DNA of 64,000 nt, taken from a virus (taxonomy: Duplodnaviria; Heunggongvirae; Uroviricota; Caudoviricetes). The translations under genes and the position numbers were made by a program. Location: IMG/VR virus record IMGVR_UViG_3300048625_000166, one strand, 5' to 3'. This document shows, one piece after another, positions 46,133 through 58,895 of this stretch (the stretch's first letter is position 1; the number at the start of each line of letters is the position of its first letter). The notes under the pieces were generated by a model. It was not told the DNA's origin. It saw only the letters and a list, made by a program, of their open reading frames with translations, and searched no databases.

Positions 46133-46134
46133 CT

Positions 46135-46224: not shown

Positions 46225-46238
46225 ATTAAAATATTTAT

Positions 46239-46322: not shown

Positions 46323-46436
46323 GACAGTTTAGTCCGATAACTGCCAAGAGTTGTGGTGATCCGGCACACCTTTTATGTATAAGTTGACTACAAGAGGCTT
46401 ATACACTAGGGCCTTCACGTTGCCCTATTTTTTAAT

Positions 46437-46561
46437 ACCATATAGAAACACACTGTCGTTTCTCTTTCCAGTCTAGACAACCTCGCTTACGAAGCACGAT
46501 TATATCACAGGATTACGCATCCTGCTCGTCACTGTACTCAAGCAATGTGTTTTTATATGGT
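46437..46561 (-). ncRNA. Long-stem RNA B5
   Basis: ACCATATAAAAACACATTG...CAGTGTGTTTCTATATGGT; begins in the ACCA of tRNA-Lys. Confidence 0.55.
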
Positions 46562-46632
46562 AGGGGCACAGGGAATCGAACCCTGATAGACCGGTTAAAA
46601 GCCGGATATTCTAGCCGTTGAATTATACCCCC
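46558..46632 (-). tRNA. tRNA-Lys(TTT)
   Basis: Loop CTTTTAA, CCA. Confidence 0.9.
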
Positions 46633-46635
46633 ATA

Positions 46636-46710
46636 TGGTCCCAGTGCTGAGATTCGAACTCAGTTCTCTCGGCTTAAGAGGCCGGACTTCACCTTCAAAG
46701 TTTCTCTGGG
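46636..46710 (-). tRNA. tRNA-Lys(CTT)
   Basis: Loop CTCTTAA, CCA; atypical D arm. Confidence 0.8.
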
Positions 46711-46772
46711 ATGGATCGTAAGAAATTTTCTTTTACGTGCCATCTGAGACCATACGGGGGTCAAAGATGACA

Positions 46773-46796
46773 CTATCGTTTACCTGAACGTTTCAT
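46773..46796 (-). other. 7-codon mini-ORF MKRSGKR followed by two hairpins
   Basis: AAGGT RBS; ATG AAA CGT TCA GGT AAA CGA TAG; then GTGTCATCT/AGATGGCAC stem. Confidence 0.45.
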
Positions 46797-46809
46797 GTCA
46801 TTTACCTTT

Positions 46810-47166
46810 TTAAGATTTAAGTGCTTTTAAAATATTATCCCAAGATTCAGTTGGATTATGACCTTGATCTAGCAAGGCAACATAAGTCTTAACTGCATCT
46901 TCTGGAATCTTGAAATAGATGTTTGCGTAGGTGCAGTCGAATGAATCATCTTCATCACGAACGTACCATGGATGACTTGACATTTCATCAAATACATCTT
47001 CATAGTCTTCACGATTGCCACCACCATTACGTGTGTGAACAACAATGTGACCATCTTCTACATAAACATCACGAAAGCGACCGAAGTCACCTTTTGTTTT
47101 ATCTAACAGACTCAGGAGTTGATCCGAGTTAGGGTTAGTGCCAAACATCATGTTATACAAACTCAT
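46810..47166 (-). CDS. Hypothetical protein
   Basis: AAGGAG RBS before MSLYNMMFG; ORF-track extension overlaps tRNA-Cys. Confidence 0.7.
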   Translation of the reverse strand: MSLYNMMFGTNPNSDQLLSLLDKTKGDFGRFRDVYVEDGHIVVHTRNGGGNREDYEDVFDEMSSHPWYVRDEDDSFDCTYANIYFKIPEDAVKTYVALLDQGHNPTESWDNILKALKS

Positions 47167-47264
47167 TTCATTCTCCTTTGTTAATTTGTGGAAGTTCCGA
47201 TAGCACCCATCGTCACTTACAACCGTTGAGTAGCCTTGCATCAAAACAGTGCTACTATTTGCTC

Positions 47265-47339
47265 TGGAGGACAGGATAGGAATCAAACCTACCTAGAACG
47301 GATTTGCAATCCGCCACATAATCGCTCTGTCACCTGTCC
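47265..47339 (-). tRNA. tRNA-Cys(GCA)
   Basis: Loop TTGCAAA, U73; T loop TTTGATT. Confidence 0.85.
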
Positions 47340-47348
47340 ATATTTTGT

Positions 47349-47436
47349 TGGCGGAGCATGTAGGAATCGAACCTACTCACCTCTTTCGAAATGATGGATT
47401 AGCAATCCATTGCCTTAACCGGTCGGCCAATGCTCC
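47349..47436 (-). tRNA. tRNA-Ser(GCT)
   Basis: Loop TTGCTAA, long variable arm. Confidence 0.95.
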
Positions 47437-47451
47437 GTAAAATATCTGATT

Positions 47452-47620
47452 AAAAATCATAAAATAGTGTATTCAGCTGGCAGACTGCAACAAGATACTA
47501 TCCTCTAATATATTAGTATCACAGTGATATTAAGTTCCGGACCCTAATATCACCAAAGTCTGGCAAATAAGATATATAAATTCAAAGTTTATTAAATGAA
47601 TACACTAATTTATGATTTTT
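47452..47620 (-). ncRNA. Long-stem RNA B8 with internal multi-way junction
   Basis: AAAATCATAAATTAGTGTATTCA...TGAATACACTATTTTATGATTTT. Confidence 0.55.
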
Positions 47621-47696
47621 GGTGGGCCCAACAGGACTCGAACCTGTGGCCAAGGAATTATGAGTTCCCTGCTCTAACCAACTGAGCTATAGGCCC
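47620..47696 (-). tRNA. tRNA-Ile2(CAT)
   Basis: GGGCCTATAGCTCAG body typical of lysidine-modified Ile2; loop CTCATAA. Confidence 0.85.
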
Positions 47697-47706
47697 ATAA
47701 TCTAAA

Positions 47707-47886
47707 ACCATATTATAATACACTCCCAATGCATGTCAAGCACTGTAACTTCATGGTACATCTTGAACCACAGTTTCGAACCTGTGAAATGTAGCACTAT
47801 CTAGTATCAACTCTTTCGAATTCAAAACATACTAGACCCGGCAAGCTGGGGCCTCTATATATGACAAGAGTATACTATAATATGGT
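47707..47886 (-). ncRNA. Long-stem RNA B6
   Basis: ACCATATTATAGTATACTC...GAGTGTATTATAATATGGT; begins in the ACCA of tRNA-Leu; internal T-arm-like CACAG-GTTCGAAA-CTGTG. Confidence 0.55.
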
Positions 47887-47969
47887 GCGGGTGGCCGGAA
47901 TCGAACCGGCACGGTGTCTCCACCGACGGATTTTAAGTCCGTTACGTCTACCTATTTCATCACACCCGC
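47883..47969 (-). tRNA. tRNA-Leu(TAA)
   Basis: Loop CTTAAAA, long variable arm. Confidence 0.95.
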
Positions 47970-47976
47970 ATATTAC

Positions 47977-48053
47977 TGGCGCCTCGTAGGGGACTCGAAC
48001 CCCTGGCCTCTTGCGTGACAGGCAAGCGATCTAACCAACTGAGCTAACGAAGC
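47977..48053 (-). tRNA. tRNA-Asp(GTC)
   Basis: Loop CTGTCAC, G73. Confidence 0.95.
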
Positions 48054-48058
48054 GTAAA

Positions 48059-48210
48059 TGGTGGGCTATCGCGGATTCAAACCACGCAACAACTCTATGT
48101 TGTAGAGTTAGGATTTCCAATCACTCTAAAGCCTATAAATTCATCACCGTTGACGTTTTACCATTGAAAGACACGGTGCCATCTGTCTCAGTCGCATTAC
48201 CTATCACCCC
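48059..48210 (-). ncRNA. 152-nt tRNA-like RNA (Ser-GGA-like loop, expanded D region)
   Basis: GGGTGAT/ATAGCCC-ACCA acceptor, T arm CGTGG-TTTGAAT-CCGCG, loop TTGGAAA, variable hairpin ACAAC/GTTGT. Confidence 0.55.
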
Positions 48211-48259
48211 ATGCTCGGATTCATAGATAGGCATTCTACTGATAATTCAATGTTTATCT

Positions 48260-48346
48260 TGGTGGATGCGGCTGGAGTTGAACCAGCAGTGCCTTTCGGG
48301 CGGCGGGTTTACAGCCCGCTGGGGTTACCAATTTTCCTACACATCC
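48260..48346 (-). tRNA. tRNA-Tyr(GTA)
   Basis: Loop CTGTAAA, long variable arm. Confidence 0.95.
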
Positions 48347-48347
48347 A

Positions 48348-48776
48348 TTATTTGTTTTTGCCACACCAAGTGTCAGTCTGTGAATGACAATTGGGACAGA
48401 GTAATCTTAAGTTTTTAAACTTGTGATTGTGATTATCGCCGTCTATGTGATCTAAATGTAGAGAAATTTCTTTTCCCATCCATTCTTCTAATCCACACGA
48501 CGAGCATTTGTTATCTAATATTTTTTCTTTTAACAAACGCTTTTTCAGTTTTAGTGTTTGATATGTAGGATGCAATCCTTCTAGAATTTCATTCAACTCT
48601 ATCTTCTTTGCACCACCACCTATCTTAAAATCTAAACCTAATCTTTTTGCTCTACGCCAAACTGTAACATCTGGCACATTAAAATAATGTGCTAACTTGC
48701 TCAAGACTGGCGTAATGTTATACTGTTCTATCAATTCAGTATCTGTAAACTTTTCTGTACTATGTTTTTGTTTCAT
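48348..48776 (-). CDS. HNH endonuclease with N-terminal HTH-like segment
   Basis: CSSC...LHLDHIDGDNHN...NLRLLCPNCH; ATAAATA 4 nt upstream. Confidence 0.85.
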   Translation of the reverse strand: MKQKHSTEKFTDTELIEQYNITPVLSKLAHYFNVPDVTVWRRAKRLGLDFKIGGGAKKIELNEILEGLHPTYQTLKLKKRLLKEKILDNKCSSCGLEEWMGKEISLHLDHIDGDNHNHKFKNLRLLCPNCHSQTDTWCGKNK

Positions 48777-48819
48777 ACAGTATTTATGAAAAGTTAGATA
48801 TGAAATCTAAAAATAAACT

Positions 48820-48896
48820 TGGTGCCCCCAGCGGGACTCGAACCCGCAGAATCTTGATTTTGAGTCAAGCACGTATACCAATTCCATCACAAGGGC
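48820..48896 (-). tRNA. tRNA-Leu(CAA), short variable loop
   Basis: Loop CTCAAAA. Confidence 0.9.
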
Positions 48897-48901
48897 AAAA
48901 A

Positions 48902-49017
48902 GAAACATACTAGCGATCTACTGTTGTTGTGATTGAACACAGGACTTAGTATAAGTCGTCCCAACTCCGCATCTTTTTAACACAAGTCCTGCGGTTGCTT
49001 GTGAGCTAATATATTTC
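48902..49017 (-). ncRNA. Long-stem structured RNA
   Basis: GAAATATATTAGC/GCTAGTATGTTTC outer stem; CAGGACTT/AAGTCCTG inner stem. Confidence 0.5.
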
Positions 49018-49024
49018 AAAAACT

Positions 49025-49100
49025 TGGTACTCCGTATGGGAATCGAACCCATCTTACCAACGTGAAAGGCTGGTGTCCTAAACCGATAGACGAACGGAGC
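49025..49100 (-). tRNA. tRNA-Glu(TTC)
   Basis: Loop CTTTCAC. Confidence 0.95.
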
Positions 49101-49110
49101 ATAGTTATTC

Positions 49111-49209
49111 ACTATATGTAAACACAAAAGCAATACTAACCGGGCGGTCGATATCGGCGTTAGCCAAGTCACTTACCCAGACTTTCAAACTAATGTGCTT
49201 ACATATAGT
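49111..49209 (-). ncRNA. Long-stem RNA B7
   Basis: ACTATATGTAAGCACATTAG...TTTGTGTTTACATATAGT. Confidence 0.55.
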
Positions 49210-49242
49210 GACTGCTTCACAGCAGTGTATATGTTGGTTGTT

Positions 49243-49312
49243 TTTTTAAAGAACAGTGCTGATTTCTCAGCGTCAATACATGTATTGTATAACATGTTTG
49301 AATCATTGTCAA
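49243..49312 (-). promoter_or_regulatory. sigma70 promoter followed by boxB-boxA
   Basis: TTGACA-17-TACAAT; GCTGA-GAAA-TCAGC; TGTTCTTTAAAAA. Confidence 0.75.
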
Positions 49313-49320
49313 ACTATTTT

Positions 49321-49435
49321 TAAGTATTTTAGATGGATTCGAACCATCGTTTCACTGGCGATTCCCACCATACAGTTACTATGACTTCACTGTGTGGGCC
49401 CTTGCGTCCTAAGCCCCTAGACGATAAGACACTTA
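49321..49435 (-). ncRNA. 115-nt tRNA-like RNA with an expanded anticodon region and no CCA
   Basis: D arm GTCT-AGGGGCTTAG-GAC, T arm GATGG-TTCGAAT-CCATC, AAGTGT/ATACTT acceptor. Confidence 0.55.
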
Positions 49436-49441
49436 GAAATA

Positions 49442-49520
49442 GTCTGACAAATTGTTAAAGAACAGTGATTGATTTCTCAATCGATACACGTATTGTATGC
49501 GAGTTTTTATTTAGTGTCAA
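49442..49520 (-). promoter_or_regulatory. sigma70 promoter followed by rrn-leader-like boxB-boxA
   Basis: TTGACA-17-TACAAT; GATTGA-GAAA-TCAATC; CACTGTTCTTTAACAATTTGTCAGAC. Confidence 0.85.
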
Positions 49521-49565
49521 GCGTTTCCTAAAATATTTTGATAAATAGTTAAAAGGAACCCCAAA

Positions 49566-50063
49566 ATGAAAAAGTACGCAACATTAAGCATTGATAGCTC
49601 AACTCTAGCAACTGAAATCATGACATATTTGAAATCTTCAATCGATGTTGAGGATAACGATCATCATATCCATGCATTTCACGTGTTAAATTTGACTGAT
49701 CTTGCCAACACTACACTCAACACTACGTTTACCGGATTAACCGCAAAATTCGTGGGGCATTTGACAATCAATGGCAGTCAAATGTTTAATCATTGCTATG
49801 ATTCTGCATTTATGCTTATTCCATTGGAAGATTGTGAATCAACAGTGGTTAAGATTTTTGACGTTGCTCCTGGCGCAGTATTTAATCCAACTGACTCTTG
49901 CTACATGGACCAAGACTGCACACTAGCAAATGCATTGCCACTTACATCACCTATTGTGATTAGTGCGAATACAACTCACACCATTGAAACAACCAACTTC
50001 ACAAAACTAGCAGATGTGTTAATGATCATCTTCAATGAAGATGTATCAACGTTACTAGCTTAA
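49566..50063 (+). CDS. Hypothetical protein, antisense to the tRNA array
   Basis: ATAAATA at 49541 and AAGGA RBS; 165 aa. Confidence 0.65.
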   Translation: MKKYATLSIDSSTLATEIMTYLKSSIDVEDNDHHIHAFHVLNLTDLANTTLNTTFTGLTAKFVGHLTINGSQMFNHCYDSAFMLIPLEDCESTVVKIFDVAPGAVFNPTDSCYMDQDCTLANALPLTSPIVISANTTHTIETTNFTKLADVLMIIFNEDVSTLLA

Positions 50064-50064
50064 G

Positions 50065-50139
50065 TGGTCCGGCGTAGTGGAATCGAACCACTATAATCAC
50101 TTTAGAAGAATGATGTCCTATCCGTTGAACGAACGCCAG
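50065..50139 (-). tRNA. tRNA-Arg(TCT)
   Basis: Loop CTTCTAA. Confidence 0.9.
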
Positions 50140-50164
50140 ATAACTGATAGCATATCACAATAAA

Positions 50165-50203
50165 AAGAAAAAGTCAAGAGATTTTTAGTTTCTTGACTTT
50201 TTT
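50165..50203. terminator. Terminator-like hairpin overlapping a -35 box (TTGACT...TATGCT)
   Basis: AAAAAGTCAAGA-11 nt-TCTTGACTTTTT. Confidence 0.55.
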
Positions 50204-50206
50204 GTT

Positions 50207-50282
50207 TGGCTCCCCTACGTGGGCTCGAACCACGGACATTTTGATTAACAGTCAAACGCTCTACCAACTGAGCTATAGGAGA
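50207..50282 (-). tRNA. tRNA-Asn(GTT)
   Basis: Loop CTGTTAA, G73. Confidence 0.95.
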
Positions 50283-50289
50283 ATAAATG

Positions 50290-50364
50290 TGGTGCCCTCG
50301 AGGTGAATCGAACACCTGATCCTCCGCTTACAAGGCGGATGCATTACCACTCTGCTACAAGGGC
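50290..50364 (-). tRNA. tRNA-Thr(TGT)
   Basis: Loop CTTGTAA. Confidence 0.95.
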
Positions 50365-50382
50365 ATAATTTTATTTATAGTG

Positions 50383-50411
50383 AGTATATCACAGCAAAAC
50401 TTTTTTGTCAA
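50383..50411 (-). promoter_or_regulatory. sigma70-type promoter
   Basis: TTGACA-17-TATACT. Confidence 0.75.
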
Positions 50412-50430
50412 GTCTTGCCATGATATCTTC

Positions 50431-50991
50431 CTACGAAAGCAAGATTCTAGAATGCTTTGGCACACCTGCCATCAAGTATTCCATTTGGTCTGCAAGAATT
50501 GTTCGTTGTTGCAGAATCATGTTTTCATAGTGGTTAGGTTCATAAGGAACATAAAGTAGTTCCATACGTGCTTCTTTCAAAGACTTATGACCCTTCTTAG
50601 AGTTACATTCCTTACATGCAGTAACTACGTTCATCCAAGTGTTGTCGCCGCCATGGTACCGAGGTACAATGTGGTCACGGCTTAGATTGTGATAGTTAGG
50701 GAAATGTCCACCACAGTATGCACAAACATACCGGTCACGACCAAACAATGTCTTGTTAGTCAATGCAACATGTGCGTGACGATGTGGGTTATAACCATGA
50801 CCCTTGATAGCAATAATAGAAGGAGATTCTAGGTAGCTTAGTGATCCGTCACGTTGTACGCCACCACGATACTTCGCAACAATTTCACCCATAGACCATG
50901 CTACGGAGTCAGTTGCGTGATATGCAATTGCGTCATCGTTTGAGATCCATTGCCGGGGAACTCCTGAAATATCTAGTGCTAGAACAGCCAT
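50431..50991 (-). CDS. HNH endonuclease (McrA/HNH_5-like)
   Basis: LFGRDRYVCAYCG...SRDHIVP...GGDNTWMNVVTACKECNSKKG. Confidence 0.9.
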   Translation of the reverse strand: MAVLALDISGVPRQWISNDDAIAYHATDSVAWSMGEIVAKYRGGVQRDGSLSYLESPSIIAIKGHGYNPHRHAHVALTNKTLFGRDRYVCAYCGGHFPNYHNLSRDHIVPRYHGGDNTWMNVVTACKECNSKKGHKSLKEARMELLYVPYEPNHYENMILQQRTILADQMEYLMAGVPKHSRILLS

Positions 50992-51036
50992 GCTTTTCTC
51001 CTTTGTGTTACTGTCTACATTTATTTAATGTTCCTT

Positions 51037-51111
51037 TGGAGGGTCGTACAAGATTCGAACTTGTGACTGCTGGTTTCGAAGACCAGAACTCTTCCACTGA
51101 GCTAACGACCC
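51037..51111 (-). tRNA. tRNA-Arg(TCG)
   Basis: Loop CTTCGAA. Confidence 0.9.
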
Positions 51112-51120
51112 ATGTTAATG

Positions 51121-51149
51121 ATTATATGACAAACACCATTATTTGTCAA
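51121..51149 (-). promoter_or_regulatory. sigma70-type promoter
   Basis: TTGACA-17-TATAAT. Confidence 0.8.
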
Positions 51150-51152
51150 ACT

Positions 51153-51228
51153 TGGTGGCCTCGGGCGGGATCGAACCACCGACACATGGATTTTCAATCC
51201 ACTGCTCTACCATCTGAGCTACGAGGCC
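51153..51228 (-). tRNA. tRNA-Phe(GAA)
   Basis: Loop TTGAAAA. Confidence 0.95.
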
Positions 51229-51229
51229 A

Positions 51230-51403
51230 TTATTTTTGTTCTGGTATCTTACGCAAGCTATCTAGCTTCACTAGACAATCACGTTGAGTACCCATTCTGA
51301 ATACGCGCAGATAATCTACGCCATCAATCTTTTGAATGTCCTTCATGTTTTTACAGAAGAACTTTTCCTTGTTTCTGACATTTTCGAAATAAGTTGTTTT
51401 CAT
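51230..51403 (-). CDS. Small hypothetical protein (57 aa)
   Basis: AAGGAG RBS before MKTTYFE. Confidence 0.6.
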   Translation of the reverse strand: MKTTYFENVRNKEKFFCKNMKDIQKIDGVDYLRVFRMGTQRDCLVKLDSLRKIPEQK

Positions 51404-51417
51404 ATCATTCTCCTTCT

Positions 51418-51494
51418 TGGTACCCCAGATGGGACTCGAACCCACAGATACAACGACCTCAACGTTGCGTGTCTACCAATTCCACCACCGGGGC
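51418..51494 (-). tRNA. tRNA-Leu(GAG), short variable loop
   Basis: Loop TTGAGGT. Confidence 0.9.
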
Positions 51495-51602
51495 ATATAT
51501 TAGTGCCAGGTTGTCCTTGTCCCTAGCGTTGCGGCAAGTTGTTTTAGGTTTTGCTTTTACTATGGATCCGCTTTACCTTAAACCACAAAAGGATTTAAAC
51601 AC

Positions 51603-51692
51603 TGGCAGAGAGTAAGGGATTCGAACCCTTGTGCCGCGCTAGCGACCATCACCTTTCCAAGATGCGCCCTTAAGCCTCTCGGGCAACTCTCT
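51603..51692 (-). tRNA. tRNA-Ser(GGA)
   Basis: Loop TTGGAAA, long variable arm. Confidence 0.9.
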
Positions 51693-51697
51693 ATATT

Positions 51698-51796
51698 TGG
51701 TGCCTCTGGCAGGACTCGAACCTGCACACTGTGGCTTATCTAGCCACTGCTTTGGGGAGGTATAAGCTCCCTTCTTTACCATTAAGCTACAGAGGC
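51698..51796 (-). tRNA. tRNA-Ile(TAT) with a long variable arm (99 nt)
   Basis: GGGAG-CTTATAC-CTCCC; variable hairpin GTGGCT/AGCCAC. Confidence 0.8.
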
Positions 51797-51803
51797 ATTA
51801 TCT

Positions 51804-51895
51804 TGGCGGAAAGCAGAGGAGTCGAACCCCATCCCCGTTAGGAGAACCCAGTTTTCAAGGCTGGTCGGCACACCAACGCGCCTGCATTACTTTCC
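51804..51895 (-). tRNA. (8/4)-fold tRNA-Ser(TGA)
   Basis: 8-bp acceptor GGAAAGTA/TGCTTTCC, 4-bp T stem, 5-bp D stem, loop CTTGAAA. Confidence 0.75.
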
Positions 51896-51896
51896 T

Positions 51897-52901
51897 TTAT
51901 TTTTTGACGCCACGGGATGGATTGAGCAATTCATGTAGATGCTCAATATATCGGTGGACTTCTTGATACACTAATTTTAGGTATCGTCTACGAACCTGCA
52001 CTTCTTGTGGGTTGCGCGGTTCGGCGAATCTATTGCTGATTCTATTGTTTATGTAAGAAATGATATCTTCACTTTCAATGCGAGGAATATCTTGTAGTCT
52101 TTCAACTTTATCTAAGCCATTTGCTTTAATAACGTCTAATGCCATTTGATGTGCAAATGCGGCAATTTCTTGTGGACTAGCATAATACAAGTCGTAGTAA
52201 CGATCTTTGTTCTTAGACTTTACAGCCTTTTGTGCGGCGCTGTAGAACTCACCCTTAGTTTTATCTAAGTAGCTACGATATTCAGTCTTGCCTAGTGGTC
52301 TATGTGCCTGTTGCTTGTGTTGAACTAAGTGTACTGCCTCGTGAACTACAATTGATACAATCTTGTCGATTGCACTGTCCATGTCTTTCAAAAGTACATT
52401 AAGAATTTCTCTGTCATTAGATTTCAACATCTTGAACAAGAAACTCATGCCCTTTGTTCTATCGCCTGCCTCATAATTGTCATACAAATAAATGCTAAAA
52501 CGATTCATGATTGTACGAGCAATTGCTGGCAAGTAAGCACGATTAATAACCATGTTAGAACCCTGTGCGTAACCGCCCATGCCCTTCATGGTACCAAATC
52601 TGAACTTAGATATTGCGTCTTTACCAAGGATCTTTTCCAAGGTAAGTTTCATTTGTTTGGTAATACCTTTTTCAATCTTTTCATTACCTTCACGTTGCAT
52701 GAACTCACGTACATAACGATCACTTAGGTTATCGTCGTTTAAGATTTCTTGCAAGTTTGGATTGTTCATGAATGACTTTTCCAATGCAGACACGCCATTA
52801 ATAATGCCGTCTTTAACAGCCCTTGACAAGTCTTCTTCATACTTGGTCATACTTATGGCTTCATCGACCACTTCTTCATTAACAAATTCAAATATACGCA
52901 T
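51897..52901 (-). CDS. Hypothetical protein with HExxH motif
   Basis: Start MRIFEF 8 nt after ATAAATA; VVHEAVHLVQ. Confidence 0.6.
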   Translation of the reverse strand: MRIFEFVNEEVVDEAISMTKYEEDLSRAVKDGIINGVSALEKSFMNNPNLQEILNDDNLSDRYVREFMQREGNEKIEKGITKQMKLTLEKILGKDAISKFRFGTMKGMGGYAQGSNMVINRAYLPAIARTIMNRFSIYLYDNYEAGDRTKGMSFLFKMLKSNDREILNVLLKDMDSAIDKIVSIVVHEAVHLVQHKQQAHRPLGKTEYRSYLDKTKGEFYSAAQKAVKSKNKDRYYDLYYASPQEIAAFAHQMALDVIKANGLDKVERLQDIPRIESEDIISYINNRISNRFAEPRNPQEVQVRRRYLKLVYQEVHRYIEHLHELLNPSRGVKK

Positions 52902-52922
52902 AGTACATATATTTATCTTATT

Positions 52923-53000
52923 TGGTGTGTCCTGTTGGAATCGAACCAACTTCTCCGATTTTTCAGACCGGCGCTGAATGACCACACTAGCTCAGGACAC
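52923..53000 (-). tRNA. tRNA-Phe(GAA), second divergent copy
   Basis: Loop CTGAAAA. Confidence 0.85.
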
Positions 53001-53001
53001 A

Positions 53002-53364
53002 TTAAATTGTTTTATATCTTTTATCTTTTTGCTTGTGTTCTACGTCCCACTTGATTGCGGCGCCAGAACAAAACTTTTCATCTTTCCAGAATCTTGCTCC
53101 ATTCAATATGAATGGCTTCAATACTCTATCACCGTTCCACCAACCACGTTGGCATTTAATGAAGCCTTTTGCTTCTAATTCGTTTCGTAGTTCTTTGAAC
53201 TCTGGATGATCATCATGTGACAATGACTTACATCGATCCTCGCCCTTGATAATCTTAATCAATTGATCTGGTGTTAGTTCGTTTACTGGAATGTGATCAT
53301 ACATTCCCCACTCTTTTTCAATCTTAACATCACATAATGAATTCATGTCGATTTCAAACTTCAT
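53002..53364 (-). CDS. Hypothetical protein
   Basis: GGAGG RBS before MKFEIDM. Confidence 0.65.
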   Translation of the reverse strand: MKFEIDMNSLCDVKIEKEWGMYDHIPVNELTPDQLIKIIKGEDRCKSLSHDDHPEFKELRNELEAKGFIKCQRGWWNGDRVLKPFILNGARFWKDEKFCSGAAIKWDVEHKQKDKRYKTI

Positions 53365-53530
53365 GCTTCCTCCATTGTAGGTTTTTGAGCGCCCAACTAT
53401 CTTTCTCAAGGACTCACTGGATTGTCTCGTATGAAGGAGTTTAGCAACCTTGTACTGCTACTGGCGTGTCAGTCACAAGAATAGGGACCTAGCGCACAAG
53501 GGACTCTACTTCTACGTCTATCTCAAAAAT

Positions 53531-53585
53531 TGGTGGTAGGCTTTCCTGGCACATGTAACCAGTAAGGCCCGGGCGCCGCCTACCA
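53531..53585 (-). ncRNA. 55-nt CCA-ending minihelix-like RNA
   Basis: TGGTAGGC/GCCTACCA-CCA stem; inner CTGG/CCAG hairpin. Confidence 0.45.
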
Positions 53586-53594
53586 TAACTCGAA

Positions 53595-53676
53595 TGTGTG
53601 TTGTAGGATTCGAACCTACATCAGGAGGTTTTTAGGCCTCTTGTAATGATGCCCTAAACATTTATACGAAACACAC
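53595..53676 (-). pseudogene. Degenerate tRNA-like element
   Basis: GTGTGTT/AACACAC acceptor, T arm GTAGG-TTCGAAT-CCTAC, 8-nt loop CCTAAAAA, no CCA. Confidence 0.55.
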
Positions 53677-53681
53677 AAAAC

Positions 53682-53939
53682 TGGCTTCGTTAGCAAGACT
53701 CGAACTTGCGATAGTGGCTTCAAATCGCGTATGCTGGGTGCCACCGTGTTTCCCAAAGTTACCCTCGTATCCCCTCTGCTAGTTTATCTCACTTTTCTCA
53801 CATTTCGACCTGTTCCGCACTTCCCGGACTCACAGTGTTTGGTTTTAAAGCCTACGCGATTGTTATCTACTTTGTTTTACTAGTTGCCTTATTAATAGCA
53901 TACTCAATACTACTCTACCTTCCTCTACACTATAACGAA
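53682..53939 (-). ncRNA. 258-nt RNA with tRNA acceptor and T arm enclosing about 200 nt (tmRNA-like architecture)
   Basis: TTCGTTA/TAACGAA-G-CCA; GCAAG-TTCGAGT-CTTGC; internal ATCGCGTA/TACGCGAT helix. Confidence 0.65.
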
Positions 53940-53946
53940 ATAAAAT

Positions 53947-54022
53947 TGGCACCGTAGACGGGAATCGAACCCGCCGCGTCTTCATAGACAGTGAAGTATC
54001 ACCCCTAGGTGAACTCTACGGT
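53947..54022 (-). tRNA. tRNA-Asp(GTC), second divergent copy
   Basis: Loop CTGTCTA (U37), G73. Confidence 0.8.
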
Positions 54023-54027
54023 ATAAA

Positions 54028-54567
54028 TCATTTTACAACATCTTGCCAACGAATGACTAGTGATTTGTCGTAATTTTGAGTTTTGTTCTTTCTGCGATTT
54101 TCCAATGCAGGAAGATACTGAAAGTTATCAGGATGATGTAGACCTCCGCATGCCAATGGCACAATATGGTCGACTTCGTATCCAGTTGGACAACTCTCGT
54201 AAATTTTTCGAATTAACTGACTATCAACGTAATCAGGTGTTGCGTTGTACTTTCTCGCTCTATAGTTTTGTACATTCAACACATTTAATTTTGCAGATTC
54301 GTCTTTCGTTTTTCTTCCAACTTTATCCCAATAAGCTATTCTAGCCTCTGATATTTTGGCAGAATGTTCTGCTGTTCTCGGCTTAAGTTTCTTTCCTTTG
54401 GTACTGGTTTGCTTAATTGAACCAGAAGCAATTCCTTCTTTAACCGAGTTGGCTATTTTTCGTTTCGTTTCATCGGATCTAACTCTAGAGTTAGCACACG
54501 GTCTACAACAATACTTTCCTGATCCATATGATCCATCATGTTCACTATTACATTTGAGGCAAAACAT
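54028..54567 (-). CDS. HNH endonuclease with zinc-finger and NUMOD3-like repeats
   Basis: CLKC...CCRPC; SDETKRKI; YEVDHIVPLACGGLHHPDN...ENRRK. Confidence 0.85.
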   Translation of the reverse strand: MFCLKCNSEHDGSYGSGKYCCRPCANSRVRSDETKRKIANSVKEGIASGSIKQTSTKGKKLKPRTAEHSAKISEARIAYWDKVGRKTKDESAKLNVLNVQNYRARKYNATPDYVDSQLIRKIYESCPTGYEVDHIVPLACGGLHHPDNFQYLPALENRRKNKTQNYDKSLVIRWQDVVK

Positions 54568-54616
54568 ATTAAATTCCTTTAATATATTTATCGAACCTCG
54601 CTCATTCTTTAGTTTT

Positions 54617-54692
54617 TGGCTCCCCAGGATGGGATCGAACCACCGACATCCTGATTAACAGTCAGGCGCAACTACCGCTGTGCTACTGGGGA
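54617..54692 (-). tRNA. tRNA-Asn(GTT)
   Basis: Loop CTGTTAA. Confidence 0.95.
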
Positions 54693-54700
54693 ATAATTCT

Positions 54701-54775
54701 TGGTGCCTCCACCTGGGCTCGAACCAGGGACTCCCACCTTATCAAGATGATACTCTACCACTGAGTTATAGAGGC
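54701..54775 (-). tRNA. tRNA-Ile(GAT)
   Basis: Loop TTGATAA. Confidence 0.9.
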
Positions 54776-54785
54776 AATTAATTGT

Positions 54786-54859
54786 TGGTACCCAGTGCAA
54801 GAATTGAACTTGCGTCTATCGATTATCAGTCGATTGCTCTTCCGTTGAGCTAACCGGGC
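54786..54859 (-). tRNA. tRNA-Ile(GAT)
   Basis: Loop CTGATAA. Confidence 0.9.
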
Positions 54860-54865
54860 ATTGTT

Positions 54866-54941
54866 TGGTAGATGTGAGTGGATTCGAACCACCGACCTGC
54901 TCCGTATGAAGGAGATGCACTAGCCGCTGTGCTACACATCC
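54866..54941 (-). tRNA. tRNA-Met(CAT), elongator-type
   Basis: Loop TTCATAC. Confidence 0.8.
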
Positions 54942-54947
54942 ATTGTA

Positions 54948-55022
54948 TGGTGCTCCTTGACAGAATCGAACTGCCACCCCTAGATTACAAAACTAGTCCA
55001 CTACCATTATGATTAAAAGAGC
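54948..55022 (-). tRNA. tRNA-Thr(TGT), divergent copy
   Basis: Loop TTTGTAA, U31:U39 mismatch. Confidence 0.8.
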
Positions 55023-55029
55023 AAATAAA

Positions 55030-55145
55030 ACAGGATACATTCTTGACGAATGCTCTACCAATTGAGCTAATCTCGCATGAAGCGAAATGTTGGAATCGAA
55101 CCAACGACACATCGTTTGATGTAGTTTGCTGTATGTATCCTAAAA
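55030..55145 (-). ncRNA. Y-like RNA A6 containing a permuted tRNA (truncated anticodon arm)
   Basis: AGGATACATACAGCAA...ATGTATCCTG; ACATC-AAAC-GATGT, GTTGG-TTCGATT-CCAAC, ATTTCGC-TTCAT-GCGAGAT, GCTC-AATTGGTA-GAGC. Confidence 0.8.
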
Positions 55146-55146
55146 T

Positions 55147-55266
55147 TGGCGCCGCCGGAGGGATTCGAACCCCCATCTCTTCCTTGACATGGAATTTTTA
55201 TATGCTGAACGTACTCTGTACAGAGTCACTTTTTATAAGTGTCCTGATCCATTAGACGACAGCGGC
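55147..55266 (-). ncRNA. 120-nt tRNA-like RNA with about 45 nt inserted between D and anticodon arms
   Basis: GCCGCTG/CGGCGGC-G-CCA; T arm GGGGG-TTCGAAT-CCCTC; TTCC-ATGTCAA-GGAA (Asp GTC-like). Confidence 0.65.
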
Positions 55267-55273
55267 GATAAAT

Positions 55274-55347
55274 TGGTGCGGGGTAAGGGAGTTGAACCCT
55301 TGACTAAACGTTGGCAACGTTTGATTTTACCGTTAAACTAACCACGC
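55274..55347 (-). tRNA. tRNA-Gly(GCC), divergent copy
   Basis: Loop TTGCCAA; A73, acceptor mismatch. Confidence 0.8.
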
Positions 55348-55355
55348 ATAAAAAC

Positions 55356-55432
55356 TGGAATACGGAGTGAGATTTGAACTCACGAATAACTGGTTTGCAA
55401 TCAGTCCCCTTAGGCCGCTCGGGCATCCGTAC
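55356..55432 (-). tRNA. tRNA-Cys(GCA)
   Basis: Loop TTGCAAA, U73. Confidence 0.85.
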
Positions 55433-55442
55433 ATAAATTGAT

Positions 55443-55518
<76 letters not shown>

Positions 55519-55528
55519 AAATTCACTT

Positions 55529-55605
55529 AGGGGTGACCGGTGGGACTTGAACCCACAAAAACCTGAGTCACAGTCAGGGTCGTCTACCAATTCCGACACG
55601 GCCAC
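55529..55605 (-). tRNA. tRNA-His(GTG), no encoded G-1 or CCA
   Basis: Loop CTGTGAC, C73; 3' end CCT; flanks pair (ACTTAGG/CCTAAGT). Confidence 0.8.
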
Positions 55606-55631
55606 ACCTAAGTAAACTTAGGAGAAATAAA

Positions 55632-55694
55632 ACAGGATGCGTTTTTGCTTTTTACCAATAAAAGTTTTTTTAATTGCTGAATGCATCCTAAAAA
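55632..55694 (-). ncRNA. Y-like RNA A7
   Basis: AGGATGCATTCAGCAA...CTTTT-ATTGGTA-AAAAG...ACGCATCCTG. Confidence 0.7.
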
Positions 55695-55722
55695 CAAAAA
55701 ACCCTGAGAGGATCAGGGTTTG
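55691..55722 (-). terminator. Intrinsic terminator inside the array
   Basis: AAACCCTGA-TCCTC-TCAGGGTTT-TTTGTTTTT. Confidence 0.75.
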
Positions 55723-55741
55723 TAATGTGTTGCAAGTATGT

Positions 55742-56395
55742 TTACTTTTTAGGATAAACATACAGTTTTTGCAAGTCTGGTCTTTCAGGTTCTAACCACT
55801 CGCCTTTCTTGCACATAGCAATGATGCTTTTTGGGCATCCTGCTAACTCTAATTGTGTATAAGAACTAAGTCCTCTACCTTGAATTTTAGGTTGCATATG
55901 ACATGGCTGAGGAACTTCTCTCCAATAACCGGTGCCATTGTCTACACCTGATGCAATGTAGTTAGTGTATTCTGCTTTGATACCAGGACGAAAATAAATT
56001 GTCAAGCCACGATCAGGTGTTTCATACACTCTAGGACCATCAACAAATATTTCTGCCATGTCTAAGCATGTCATTACAGCAGTAGGTCGCTGTAGATGAT
56101 CTAACCTTGTGCCATCAGGGCATGCACCGTTGTCTAACTCAGTTTTATCGCCGTTAGGCAACTCCATGAACTCGCCATGCTGAGTTTTGAATTCACCGAA
56201 CAAGTCTTGGTAATTCTCACTGATCCAGTATTTCTCGCGTGTCCAATCTTCATCCCTATCGATGGTAGTAGTCACACCTTTAAACACTTTAATATAGCCA
56301 CTATCGCCGCCATCAAGTGCTTCATAAGATAATTCTTTATTGACTGTTAATGTCAATTTCTTTGTATTGTAATCATAAATCCATGGTAAAATCAT
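55742..56395 (-). CDS. Hypothetical protein
   Basis: ATAAATA at 56415-56421 and GGAG RBS; 217 aa. Confidence 0.65.
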   Translation of the reverse strand: MILPWIYDYNTKKLTLTVNKELSYEALDGGDSGYIKVFKGVTTTIDRDEDWTREKYWISENYQDLFGEFKTQHGEFMELPNGDKTELDNGACPDGTRLDHLQRPTAVMTCLDMAEIFVDGPRVYETPDRGLTIYFRPGIKAEYTNYIASGVDNGTGYWREVPQPCHMQPKIQGRGLSSYTQLELAGCPKSIIAMCKKGEWLEPERPDLQKLYVYPKK

Positions 56396-56435
56396 AGTTC
56401 GTCTCCGATACTAGTATTTATAGATTAATGAATAA

Positions 56436-56512
56436 TGGCGCCACCGAAGAGATTCGAACTCCTGACTCCTTCGTTCGTAGCGAAGTACTCTAATCCACTG
56501 AGTTACGGCGGC
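56436..56512 (-). tRNA. tRNA-Arg(ACG)
   Basis: Loop CTACGAA. Confidence 0.95.
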
Positions 56513-56520
56513 ATAATATA

Positions 56521-56624
56521 ACAGGATAGTTGTTTTGCAGGGGGAATTGAACCCCCAAGGTTTGATTAGAAGTCAAATTGTGAACCGTTCACATGCGTAT
56601 TGTTTGCTGTAACTATCCTAAAAC
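56521..56624 (-). ncRNA. Y-like RNA A8 containing D, anticodon (Arg TCT) and T arms in normal order
   Basis: AGGATAGTTACAGCAA...GTGAA-CGG-TTCAC, TTTGA-CTTCTAA-TCAAA, GGGGG-TTCAATT-CCCCC...AACTATCCTG. Confidence 0.8.
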
Positions 56625-56699
56625 TGGCATCCTGTACGGGAATCGAACCCGTCTTTATGACTTGAAAGGCCATCGTTCTTACCGATAAACTAACAGGAT
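56625..56699 (-). tRNA. tRNA-Glu(TTC), divergent copy
   Basis: Loop CTTTCAA. Confidence 0.85.
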
Positions 56700-56809
56700 A
56701 TTAATTCGTTCCCGTGCTACGACTTTTACGCAACGACCGTAGTGCCCGATCTCGCAAGTTGCTCCGGACGGGAGTAGAGCAACGTTGTCTTCTTTCTGGC
56801 CAGAAATAC

Positions 56810-56885
56810 TGGCACCCCGTGATGGACTCGAACCACCGCATGTCGGAATCAAAATCCGATGCCTTACCAACTTGGCGAACAGGGT
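56810..56885 (-). tRNA. tRNA-Gln(TTG)
   Basis: Loop TTTTGAT, G73. Confidence 0.9.
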
Positions 56886-56891
56886 ATAATT

Positions 56892-56966
56892 TGGTGGAAG
56901 CCGAGGGAGTTGAACCCTTCTAGACAGCGATCTTGCAAGGATCACCCGTAGCCCGCTACTGCCCCC
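56892..56966 (-). tRNA. tRNA-Ala(TGC), atypical short D arm
   Basis: G3:U70, loop CTTGCAA, D region GTAGC-GG-GCTAC. Confidence 0.7.
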
Positions 56967-57170
56967 AATTGTATGGCGTCCACCGTCGGTATCACACCGC
57001 ACTCCAAGTCAGCTGGTAAGTGCTGACCTACGTATCTCACGTTGAGTGGACTGTCTTATACTTCCATCGTTGCCACCACAGCATTGACTACTCATATAAG
57101 CACTAACTTGAATAGACGCTACCGGGCATTAATATCCGCCCGTATCACAGTTAGTTGGTCTACATAAACT

Positions 57171-57257
57171 TGGTGGAACCCTAAGGAATCGAACCTCTTG
57201 CCACCACCCACCTTATTATGGCTACGATTTTACAGACCGCAAGCGGGAAAGGGCTCC
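57171..57257 (-). tRNA. D-armless tRNA-Tyr(GTA)-like RNA with a long variable arm
   Basis: GGAGCCCT/AGGGTTCC acceptor, GCGGT-CTGTAAA-ATCGT, T loop TTCGATT, CCA; only about 9 nt in place of the D arm. Confidence 0.7.
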
Positions 57258-57268
57258 ATTAAATTGTT

Positions 57269-57342
57269 TGGTCTGGGTGGCAAGAATCGAACTTGCTCCT
57301 CGAGTATCCAAGACTCGCCGACTTCCATTATCCTACACCCAG
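57269..57342 (-). tRNA. tRNA-Pro(TGG), divergent copy
   Basis: Loop CTTGGAT (A37). Confidence 0.85.
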
Positions 57343-57358
57343 ATTGATAAATACTATT

Positions 57359-57922
57359 ATGAATACACAAAAACTACGCCAACTAATGAATCTATGCGAG
57401 GGTCGTAACCCTGATCTAGAATATCAAGACGCAGAAGATAAAGTCATTGCTAGACTTCAAAGTTATAAGAGTCAATCTTATACTAAACTTGCTCAAAAAG
57501 TCAACCGCATCAAAGAATTAAAAGATGAGGTCAAGGCCTTAGAGGAAGAAGTCAAACAAGAAACTCGTGAAAACATCAATGATTTGTTTGATGCCGAAGA
57601 TGCTGTAAAAACACGCATCGTTGAAACTATGAGTTTTATTCTTACTCTAAGCAAGAATCCAAAAGCTACAGAAACTCCTAAGTACAAGGACATTCTGAAT
57701 GAACTTACTAATCACTTGACTCCAGAGTTGATTAACGTCCTAGAAGGTCTTAAGAAACAAATGGTTACTGTTACTCAGAAAGAACCATCATTGAAAATTG
57801 AACCACTTAAGGAAGGTTTCTTAGGCTCATACTTTGCACGTTTGAAAAACGCTGTTATGAGTTGGGGTCAACGTTATGACCAGAAACTCGATAACTTAAA
57901 GCGTTTAGCTTACTCAAAATAA
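57359..57922 (+). CDS. Coiled-coil hypothetical protein, antisense to the tRNA array
   Basis: MNTQKLRQ starts 5 nt after GATAAATA; upstream ORF-track extension is antisense to tRNA-Pro. Confidence 0.7.
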   Translation: MNTQKLRQLMNLCEGRNPDLEYQDAEDKVIARLQSYKSQSYTKLAQKVNRIKELKDEVKALEEEVKQETRENINDLFDAEDAVKTRIVETMSFILTLSKNPKATETPKYKDILNELTNHLTPELINVLEGLKKQMVTVTQKEPSLKIEPLKEGFLGSYFARLKNAVMSWGQRYDQKLDNLKRLAYSK

Positions 57923-57924
57923 GT

Positions 57925-58002
57925 TGGCAGAGGTAACTGGATTCGAACCAGTGTTCACGATTTCAAAGACCGTAGCTTTAGGCCAGACTAAGCTATACCC
58001 CA
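57925..58002 (-). tRNA. tRNA-Gln(TTG)
   Basis: U1:U72 mismatch, loop CTTTGAA, G73. Confidence 0.85.
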
Positions 58003-58243
58003 ACAAAAAACGCTATTCATTAGTATACAGGACATAAGGCCGTCAGGAGGCGAAATGCAGTGTTCATCCTATGATACTAGTGAATAGCATCTTGCGATGC
58101 TATGCTAGAGTCAATGCTCTAGCCAGTTATTTGTACTCCCGGGTTCTCGCCCACGGTTTCATCCAACTGTCCGCCCGTTCAAAGTTTATTATAGTGTTCT
58201 TTCAGGACCTCGTTTCCTGGGCTTACGCTCTTATTCAACACTG

Positions 58244-58411
58244 TTAATCAGCATAGTTTACTAGCTTTTTCAAACTAGCTAACTTTTCCTGATCCTTTTT
58301 CGCTCTCTCATACTTGTTTCGCATGAGAATTCTAACTTGTTCTTTTGACAGAGTATGGTTCTTTAACCAGTTATCTTTGTCAGAAGAACTTAATCTTATT
58401 TCATCCTTCAA
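58244..58411 (-). CDS. Possible 55-aa basic protein (TTG start)
   Basis: Open frame LKDEIRLSS...LVNYAD; weak RBS. Confidence 0.35.
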   Translation of the reverse strand: MKDEIRLSSSDKDNWLKNHTLSKEQVRILMRNKYERAKKDQEKLASLKKLVNYAD

Positions 58412-58457
58412 TTTTTATCAATCTTTCTTTTTGTTCTGTTGTATTTTTGCTACATTC

Positions 58458-58494
58458 AAAACAAAAAACCTCTGGGTTTTTAATCCAGAGGTTT
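58458..58494 (-). terminator. Attenuator terminator upstream of the tRNA array
   Basis: AAACCTCTGG-ATTAAAAAC-CCAGAGGTTT-TTTGTTTT. Confidence 0.85.
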
Positions 58495-58553
58495 CATAAT
58501 CTTTTTGGAGTGTTACTTTAAGCGTAACCGTCTCCTTCTATGAAACTCTCTGG
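58485..58553 (-). promoter_or_regulatory. Antiterminator helix
   Basis: CCAGAGAGTTTCATA (58553-58539) pairs with TATGAAACCTCTGG (58498-58485): 14 bp with one bulge. Confidence 0.75.
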
Positions 58554-58691
58554 TGTTCTCGCATCATAATTGCTCTCTGATCCGCGAATACTAGATAAGC
58601 CTGATGTACCAAACGTAGCCCATACCGGCTGTTGCAATGCGAAAGCATTTAGCCCTGTATGTTTAGCGGTTTGACACATTATGTTTTTCAT
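58518..58691 (-). CDS. 57-aa leader peptide with high codon diversity
   Basis: MKNIMCQTAKHTGLNAFALQQPVWATFGTSGLSSIRGSESNYDARTPESFIEGDGYA; 20 amino acids, 41 distinct codons. Confidence 0.7.
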   Translation of the reverse strand: MKNIMCQTAKHTGLNAFALQQPVWATFGTSGLSSIRGSESNYDARTPESFIEGDGYA

Positions 58692-58768
58692 AGTAAGTTT
58701 ATTTATCTCTGATTAAAAATTTAGTCATTTAAGACTGGTTTTTTGTTGTTTTTGCAACGTATGAGTGA

Positions 58769-58797
58769 AGTATAACTTGTTTTCGATTAGTTGTCAA
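58769..58797 (-). promoter_or_regulatory. sigma70-type promoter for the leader and tRNA array
   Basis: TTGACA-17-TATACT. Confidence 0.85.
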
Positions 58798-58841
58798 CAA
58801 CTTTTTTCGTTAACTTGTCCAAAACTTCAAAATTCTTTTTT

Positions 58842-58895
58842 GCTCGATTTCTCAAGCAATGTGTGTAGTATATATCTGTTTTGAGTTGTTGTCAA
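58842..58895 (-). promoter_or_regulatory. Upstream tandem sigma70 promoter with a boxB-like hairpin and no boxA
   Basis: TTGACA-17-TATACT; GCTTGA-GAAA-TCGAGC. Confidence 0.75.

Follow-up and report, generated by a model that had tools for sequence, protein, structure and literature searches.

What might a 57-codon open reading frame (ORF) do at the head of a large viral array of transfer RNA (tRNA) genes, with strong promoters in front of it and a strong terminator behind? The question is raised by a locus near one end of a 64,000-nucleotide stretch of DNA (hereafter the window) from IMG/VR record IMGVR_UViG_3300048625_000166, a 364,247-bp virus with terminal repeats (Duplodnaviria; Heunggongvirae; Uroviricota; Caudoviricetes). 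The ORF, here called ORF1, lies on the minus strand and is present once genome-wide. An earlier note, made from the letters alone, had read it as an attenuator leader that samples almost the whole genetic code and gates the tRNA genes. The analysis described here leads us to regard ORF1 and its surroundings, with somewhat better than even confidence, as a ribosome-mediated transcription attenuator heading the tRNA array, whose leader peptide serves as a general decoding test. In silico support covers the translation of ORF1, the mutually exclusive RNA helices and their conservation, selection for amino-acid completeness of the peptide and the position at the array head.

Relatives were collected by profile searches, which yielded 48 protein clusters, 22 IMG/VR loci and 25 metagenome loci (47 loci in total). 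The resulting family comprises about 77 distinct peptides from metagenomic jumbo phages, and its metagenome loci lie on contigs of up to 363 kb. Every database relative, in all 48 clusters, is named 'hypothetical protein'. GenBank phages gave no DNA match and only spurious protein matches to ORF1 (E=3), and no relative was found in cellular genomes sampled at one per prokaryote species. PHROG profiles run on ten large ORFs of the window did not help to classify the phage. ORF1 keeps strict linkage to the heads of tRNA arrays. In all loci with enough sequence, tRNA genes lie on the same strand as the leader and exclusively downstream of it; the distance from leader to first tRNA is 300-1200 nt, and the first gene is often tRNA-Gln. 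In the window and in four relatives on long contigs, the one-orientation arrays behind the leader hold 32-49 tRNAs of 19-20 amino-acid types. Because the upstream genes vary among relatives while the position relative to the array stays constant, we consider the leader linked to the tRNA array.

Comparative evidence indicates that ORF1 is translated. No in-frame stop occurs across 32 distinct DNAs, compared with 4.9 and 4.1 stops per sequence in frames 2 and 3, and gap runs between the start codon and the 3′ codons called region 2 below measure only 3, 6, 9 or 12 nt. Entropy at third codon positions is 0.73 versus 0.50 and 0.53 at the first and second positions, giving a three-base period. Pairwise ratios of nonsynonymous to synonymous substitution (dN/dS) are about 0.2-0.6, and conserved Thr, Gly and Pro residues show freely varying third bases. 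The product itself matches no profile in Pfam or PHROGs and has no usable match in the ESM Atlas. AlphaFold2, run with the family alignment, returns a predicted local distance difference test (pLDDT) value of 58 and no secondary structure.

This coding signature bears directly on the idea of the locus as an RNA switch that works untranslated, be it a riboswitch, a protein-binding leader or a T-box-like tRNA sensor, and in which the open frame is incidental. Such a switch would fit the strong nucleotide conservation of the end of the 5′ untranslated region (UTR), of the 3′ third of the ORF and of the terminator with its loop. An open frame in all copies, indels in multiples of three and codon periodicity make it highly improbable, and an untranslated element was rejected on these grounds. 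Nor does it match an Rfam family: at gathering score, the 40-64 kb part of the window contains tRNAs and a GOLLD RNA only, with no leader family and no T-box, and at E≤10 the leader region gives chance-level matches, the best being His_leader with 19.4 bits against a cut-off of 49 (E=0.87).

The 3′ codons of the frame form one strand of a putative RNA switch. Beginning 23 nt past the ORF1 stop is the predicted U-tailed intrinsic terminator, T1 (fold −14 kcal/mol), whose stem is paired in 99.7% of cells across relatives, with compensatory changes; in most of them a GC-rich stem of 10-12 bp is followed by a U tract. It had been proposed that codons 47-51 pair with the 5′ arm of this terminator over 14 bp, and this is what we find: CCAGAGAGTTTCATA (58553-58539) pairs with TATGAAACCTCTGG (58498-58485; region 3) with one bulged A. 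The best duplex between the T1 5′ arm and the upstream transcript reaches −19.3 kcal/mol, whereas 2000 dinucleotide shuffles average −8.7 ± 1.9 kcal/mol and none is as good. Among 31 sequences, the helix between regions 2 and 3 is paired in 95.8% of cells. It overlaps 10 nt of the T1 stem and is the more stable of the two structures in 40 of 40 distinct variants (mean −26.5 kcal/mol for the antiterminator versus −17.5 kcal/mol for the terminator). In the minimum-energy fold of the segment spanning regions 2 to 4, the antiterminator is present in every variant printed except L020 and L054.

Conservation follows the paired strands. In the Ser-Phe-Ile-Glu-Gly codons (AGT TTC ATA GAA GGA) synonymous sites are frozen; in the N-terminal two-thirds of ORF1 the proportion of synonymous differences (pS) is about 0.58. 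In the window and in relative L053, regions 2, 3 and 4 have A, T and A at positions where other relatives have G, C and G, at the price of a conserved Gly becoming Glu, and L054 and L055 shorten all three strands together, region 3 by a C and regions 2 and 4 by a G each. The apical hairpin that caps the helix exists as three unrelated sequences with one architecture, including a compensatory change from GTTAC/GTAAC to GATAC/GTATC. Although the C-terminal tails are of five different kinds, the stop codon always lies in or at this hairpin, and region 3 always starts 11-24 nt further on. A further hairpin directly 5′ of region 2, the mid hairpin, is predicted in nearly all variants, has indels only in its loop and coincides with frozen synonymous sites at Ser40, Asn43, Tyr44 and Asp45; it may be a pause or synchronising hairpin. 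These comparative tests agree with the attenuation architecture put forward in the earlier note, that is, a translated leader whose 3′ codons act as antiterminator against a U-tailed terminator.

The same helix bears on a plainer explanation, in which ORF1 is an ordinary small protein gene, T1 insulates it from the transcription unit of a following promoter (P3), the helix is a processing or stabilising element such as an RNase III-type site, and a conserved, disordered and diverse peptide yields amino-acid completeness as a by-product. A conserved promoter immediately after the terminator is what such a gene would call for, and three relatives (L020, L021 and L050) do retain the ORF without a usable terminator. 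However, because the overlapping helix is more stable in all 40 variants, T1 of an untranslated RNA would be disabled. Strict linkage to array heads despite variable upstream genes also argues against an ordinary gene, as does the absence of any predicted fold for its product. We consider this explanation unlikely, for these reasons and for others that lie in the composition of the peptide.

All 20 amino acids occur in the window's ORF1, the twentieth being reached at codon 43. The codon counts on which the earlier note was built (37 distinct codons in the first 45 and 41 overall) are exact. Its chance baseline of about 37 is the correct value for uniform codon use (37.2) but understates how diverse the leader is, as the number of distinct codons per 57-codon window of the phage's own genes is 31.7 ± 3.2, and a count of 41 is reached in only 1 of 6986 such windows. 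In the phage's own proteins, windows of 57 residues contain all 20 amino acids in 8% of cases, and windows of 42-45 residues in 1.7-2.8%. By comparison, 73 of the 77 distinct family peptides contain all 20, and 71 are complete, with an internal Met, within the 41-47 residues 5′ of region 2, for which windows of equal length give the baseline of 1.7-2.8%. In every complete member the last amino acid to be completed is an invariant Asp, 3-4 codons before region 2. There is no codon run of any kind: the 20 amino acids occur mostly one to three times each, and the classical cluster of regulatory codons is absent.

Cys, His, Trp, internal Met and Val shift between alignment columns among relatives, yet they persist. 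Cys is usually found in column 6 (alternatively 5), His in column 12 (20 or 7), Trp in column 16 (25), Val in column 24 (22, 28 or 19) and the internal Met in column 32 (5, 15, 20, 25, 34 or 49). Selection for amino-acid completeness in the leader is supported by three tests. In the first, shuffling within columns predicts 35 complete peptides out of 77, and among six representatives below 70% identity all six are complete versus 2.8 expected (p=0.001). The second, a tree-aware simulation of 1000 runs that starts from a complete ancestor and uses site-specific frequencies, yields 46 ± 10 complete peptides with a maximum of 69, compared with the 71 observed (p<0.001). Third, the same simulation is neutral for the family of the adjacent ORF2, whose members have 15-18 amino-acid types and 25-33 codons (16.4 types observed, 16.2 simulated, p=0.31).

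In favour of an ordinary gene are the chance occurrence of all 20 amino acids in about 8% of 57-residue windows and purifying selection on the peptide, with motifs that fall outside a pure test-peptide model. Such a gene accounts less well for rare residues that move yet persist beyond the tree-aware expectation, an effect that ORF2 lacks.

Completeness likewise bears on the possibility that the attenuator is real but responds to coupling alone, reporting ribosome availability, global elongation rate or infection stage, with no sensing role for the amino-acid content. All the evidence on architecture serves this version equally well. Single codons per amino acid would give only weak specific sensitivity, and regulation may act on initiation itself, given that the leader has no Shine-Dalgarno site. 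Against this stand the maintenance of completeness above expectation, entirely 5′ of region 2, and synonymous codon diversity: family members use 35-42 distinct codons, and diversity exceeds the expectation from their own sequences in 32 of 32 members (in the window 41 versus 35.8 ± 2.1, p=0.013). A leader responding to coupling alone is, in our judgment, improbable.

How the proposed attenuator would work follows the logic of its helices, from which we infer the translation-dependence of termination, the direction of the response and its physiological trigger. Transcripts from the two promoters upstream of ORF1 (P1 and P2), and possibly from a late-type motif, would carry ORF1. With the ribosome absent, region 2 would pair with region 3 and the hairpin containing the stop codon would cap the pairing; this helix would form first and outcompete the terminator, and RNA polymerase would go on to transcribe ORF2, a structured spacer and the tRNA genes. 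Because the antiterminator is more stable than the terminator, untranslated RNA should read through T1. A lead ribosome that keeps pace as far as the stop codon would melt region 2 and leave region 3 uncovered, T1 would form and the transcript would end at about 58455; region 3 should stay free of the ribosome at the stop because it starts 11-24 nt further on. The ribosome would be delayed, and read-through raised, whenever translation failed generally or any charged tRNA ran severely short; read-through would add transcription from P1 and P2 to what the array's own promoters supply at a basal level. Since all 20 amino acids, elongator Met included, precede region 2, any severe decoding failure would be a trigger. 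Since most amino acids occur once or a few times, a response is expected to near-total tRNA loss or global slowing and little to mild starvation.

In its most specific form, the proposal is that of a universal decoding test, in which the ribosome would stall upon a translation block or when any one charged tRNA is lost; the stall would let strong early promoters feed the array, which would make the leader a homeostat. We offer this form tentatively, at rather less than even confidence. Host anticodon nucleases, tRNA-cutting CRISPR or toxin effectors and starvation would be candidate causes of tRNA loss, and the phage would replace damaged host tRNAs on demand and stop the supply once decoding is healthy again.

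Several findings weigh against an attenuator that tests decoding. Some concern the peptide. Codon diversity is kept in related leaders, as had been anticipated, but their peptides do not diverge freely: orthologues are 45-98% identical and share conserved motifs, and conservation extends beyond what completeness needs, at Thr12, Gly13, Pro22 and Ser-Ile-Arg 34-36, where third bases are variable. Sampling of the code is pan-amino-acid and not, as first thought, pan-codon or pan-tRNA. Of the 28-33 anticodon species in an array, its leader reads 23-27 (79-89%), only modestly more than gene windows do (p=0.02-0.18), and this wider form of the idea was set aside. A preference for rare codons was likewise dropped, the mean relative synonymous codon usage of the leader being at the low end without reaching significance (p=0.06). 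Compared with classical leaders, which have codon runs, the phage leader should be far less sensitive to mild starvation. As remarked earlier, the ribosome-binding site is weak: ORF1 has no Shine-Dalgarno or GGAG-type site, though about half of the phage's genes have one.

Other such points concern the RNA and the array. Covariation in the antiterminator, looked for in relatives, takes the form of compensatory events, but these are few, and L026 and L051 have an uncompensated mismatch. L020, L021 and L050 keep ORF1 and the hairpin without the U tract, P3 and ORF2 (about 2740-2800), and in L025 the terminator has been lost by deletion (2640-2720), fusing the leader ORF to downstream sequence; these deletion variants could act as natural controls. 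The T1 loop is nearly invariant in relatives, beyond the need of a plain terminator. The tRNAs can also arise from P3, which is conserved and lies directly 3′ of T1, and at least six further strong sigma70-type promoters lie inside the array. The terminator that had been noted at 55.7 kb is present as well; it follows six tRNAs and may end the gated unit. The leader does stand at the head of the array but is not its sole control; given P3 and the internal promoters, the attenuator would only modulate tRNA output.

The conserved motifs (KHTG, PSIRGS, NYD and PGSFIEG), with variable synonymous sites at several residues, and a conserved C-terminal block that ends a few codons before the stop would also suit an arrest peptide, whose nascent chain stalls the ribosome on a specific small molecule or factor and so sets the choice between terminator and antiterminator. 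TnaC, SecM and SpeFL are arrest peptides that stall the ribosome in this way on a specific molecule or factor. Much of the C-terminal conservation in the phage leader, however, is at the nucleotide level and is accounted for by RNA pairing, the peptide has no similarity to any known family, and an arrest mechanism leaves unexplained why rare residues move yet are kept. An arrest peptide therefore seems quite improbable to us.

Coordinates of the features discussed are collected in Table 1.

Table 1. Features of the leader region and of the start of the tRNA array, in 5′ to 3′ order along the minus strand as far as they do not overlap
Feature	Position in window	Strand	Remarks
Promoter P1, TTGACA-17-TATACT	58867..58895	-	11/12 consensus positions
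boxB-like hairpin after P1, GAAA-capped, 8 bp	58840..58859	-	Read from sequence; no boxA-like TGTTCTTTA after it
Promoter P2, TTGACA-17-TATACT	58769..58797	-	11/12 consensus positions; 5′ UTR about 70 nt
Late-promoter-like GATAAATA	58700..58707	-	8 nt before ATG; putative function
Region 1, CTATGAAA, including start codon	58686..58693	-	Complementary to TTTCATAG in region 2
Leader ORF1, 57 codons + stop	58518..58691	-	Frame open in 32/32 distinct DNA copies
Sensing part, codons 2-46, all 20 amino acids including internal Met	58554..58688	-	Same in 71/77 members
Mid hairpin, CGCGGATCA...TGATGCGAG	58558..58586	-	Directly 5′ of region 2; putative function
Region 2, antiterminator 5′ strand, CCAGAGAGTTTCATAGA, codons 47-52	58537..58553	-	Duplex energy, pairing, frozen synonymous sites
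Apical hairpin, stop codon (58520-58518) in loop	58507..58535	-	Caps region 2:3 helix
Region 3, TATGAAACCTCTGG	58485..58498	-	Antiterminator 3′ strand and T1 5′ arm
Intrinsic terminator T1, 10-bp stem, 9-nt loop, U tract	58454..58494	-	AAACCTCTGG / ATTAAAAAC / CCAGAGGTTT then TTTGTTTT
Promoter-like P3, TTGATA-17-TAAGAT in the window	58393..58421	-	Overlaps ORF2 start; relatives TTGACA-17-TAGAAT
ORF2, conserved, 46-58 amino acids, two helices	58244..58411	-	Also at L009 2776-2934 and other loci
Conserved structured spacer, ORF2 to first tRNA	58003..58243	-	Covarying hairpins; boxB-like GNRA-capped hairpin 58103-58084
tRNA-Gln(UUG), first gene of array	57925..58002	-	Array of 45 tRNAs, 42815-58002
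Next strong intrinsic terminator	55699..55721	-	After six tRNAs; may end gated unit

The two tandem sigma70 promoters and the late motif that had been read ahead of ORF1 are all present. A similar upstream promoter, comparable to P1, is found in relative L003. In P2, the −35 sequence TTGAC is invariant in 31 aligned relatives, as are the T, the A and the final T of the −10 box. At the late-type motif relatives carry CTAAATA, of which TAAATA is invariant in 31 relatives. ATAAATA or TATAAATA also stands 4-22 nt 5′ of several gene starts in the window and 7 nt 5′ of three tRNA 5′ ends. The latter are perfect T4-type late motifs (TATAAATA) at 43976-43983, 46232-46239 and 50372-50379, on the minus strand, preceding mature tRNA-Leu, tRNA-Ser and tRNA-Thr, respectively. 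The window contains six TATAAATA sites, every one of them on the minus strand, which is the strand of the tRNA array. Given the 7-nt distance between motif and tRNA 5′ end, late transcripts might start at or next to the first tRNA base.

After the upstream promoter, a boxB-like hairpin without a boxA had been described, and both parts of that description hold, no TGTTCTTTA following the hairpin. Elsewhere on the minus strand, at 45459-45474 and 49258-49271, GAAA-capped hairpins 3′ of promoters internal to the array do have a TGTTCTTTA after them, an arrangement like that of rrn boxB-boxA. At the start of ORF1, the complementarity between region 1 and TTTCATAG is paired in the RNAalifold consensus, with 98% of cells paired, and both strands are nearly invariant. 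Region 1 may be an anti-antiterminator or a mask of the start codon; its pairing is a possible equivalent of the 1:2 helix of classical attenuators. An upstream CCAGAGA/CCAGGAC motif near −20 was considered as an extra competitor strand and set aside, the evidence being too thin.

Beyond T1, P3 is recognizable in 29 of 36 distinct relatives, and its −10 box keeps TAnnAT while the overlapping amino acids vary. The start codon of ORF2 sits between the −35 and −10 boxes of P3, and full-length ORF2 should therefore be readable only from transcripts that pass T1. An AlphaFold2 model of ORF2 has two confident helices (pLDDT up to 93). No match to ORF2 was found in Pfam or PHROGs, nor in the Protein Data Bank (PDB) by a Foldseek search with the model, and the ESM Atlas returned only unnamed clusters at chance-level scores. 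The structured spacer between ORF2 and the first tRNA has no Rfam match; within it, the invariant 14-mer AACGGGCGGACAGT (58179-58166) recurs at the same relative place in 22 fetched loci. The spacer may be a new non-coding RNA or an antitermination leader.

Further observations concern the array. Its second strong terminator (minus strand, 55699-55721; AAACCCTG...CTCAGGGTTTTTT) resembles the leader terminator of relatives (AAACCCCTGGG...CTCAGGGGTTTTT), and this sequence likeness suggests a terminator type shared within the phage group. A 188-amino-acid ORF on the plus strand (57356-57922), with only weak coiled-coil-like profile matches, lies between the first tRNA-Gln and the remaining array; transcription derived from the leader would run antisense through it. 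A GOLLD RNA (Rfam RF02032, 203 bits) lies inside the array at 44325-44788 on the minus strand, and embedded in it is a tRNA-like element (44652-44726) for which ARAGORN reads a 4-base anticodon. In relative L007, the array includes a tRNA with anticodon UUA (4843-4915), a potential ochre suppressor.

Leader-peptide attenuation is a textbook mechanism, and the phage element shares most of its parts with the trpL, hisL, pheL, leuL, thrL and ilvL attenuators, in which a short translated ORF likewise precedes the regulated genes. As in the trp, his and ilv systems, the terminator shares its 5′ arm with an upstream antiterminator of higher stability, the ribosome would pick the helix by its position, and arrival at the stop codon would favour termination; possible counterparts of the 1:2 helix and of the pause hairpin can be recognized. 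The phage leader differs in having no codon run for one or a few amino acids but all 20 within about 45 codons, in being three to four times longer than trpL or hisL, and in preceding, on a phage genome, tRNA genes and a small protein instead of biosynthetic enzymes. Untranslated RNA, moreover, appears to be read through by default instead of being super-attenuated. Enterobacterial thrL and ilvL are multivalent leaders of amino-acid biosynthetic operons. To our knowledge, leader-peptide attenuation is known only for one or a few amino acids and for biosynthetic or synthetase genes, and our full-text literature search turned up neither an account of an all-amino-acid leader nor one of tRNA genes controlled by a leader peptide. 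As the codon run is absent and no Rfam leader family matches, we describe the element as working like a leader-peptide attenuator and do not assign it to a described family.

Three other types of control resemble the phage leader in part. Leaders of erm and cat genes, and leader ORFs detected by Term-seq in Firmicutes, likewise report general trouble in elongation, stalling of the ribosome freeing an antiterminator or anti-sequester. Unlike the phage leader, the erm/cat-type leaders are short, govern resistance genes and react to ribosomes with a bound drug in specific peptide contexts; we know of none that is built from all 20 amino acids or controls tRNA genes. T-box riboswitches similarly raise the transcription of decoding genes upon shortage of a charged tRNA by choosing between terminator and antiterminator. 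A T-box, however, binds one uncharged tRNA directly and is untranslated, whereas ORF1 has a clear coding signature and no T-box or specifier features were found in the phage leader. In E. coli pyrBI, the outcome is also set by the spacing between the lead ribosome and RNA polymerase, over a leader of 40-50 codons without an amino-acid run. There, a close ribosome blocks the terminator, into which the leader extends; in the phage leader 11-24 nt separate the stop from the terminator arm, and it is the antiterminator that the ribosome should disrupt.

The element measures about 450 bp and consists of sigma70-type promoters and an intrinsic terminator, so that it can be tested without culturing the phage. 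If our reading is true, such leaders could act as compact genetic sensors of translational stress, and a leader containing every amino acid ahead of 32-49 tRNA genes would extend attenuation to the monitoring of decoding as a whole. The purpose of phage tRNAs is debated between compensation for codon usage and counter-defence against tRNA-cleaving immunity. In that debate the leader, if it works as proposed, would offer the first explanation in terms of regulation of how giant phages put their large tRNA sets to use.

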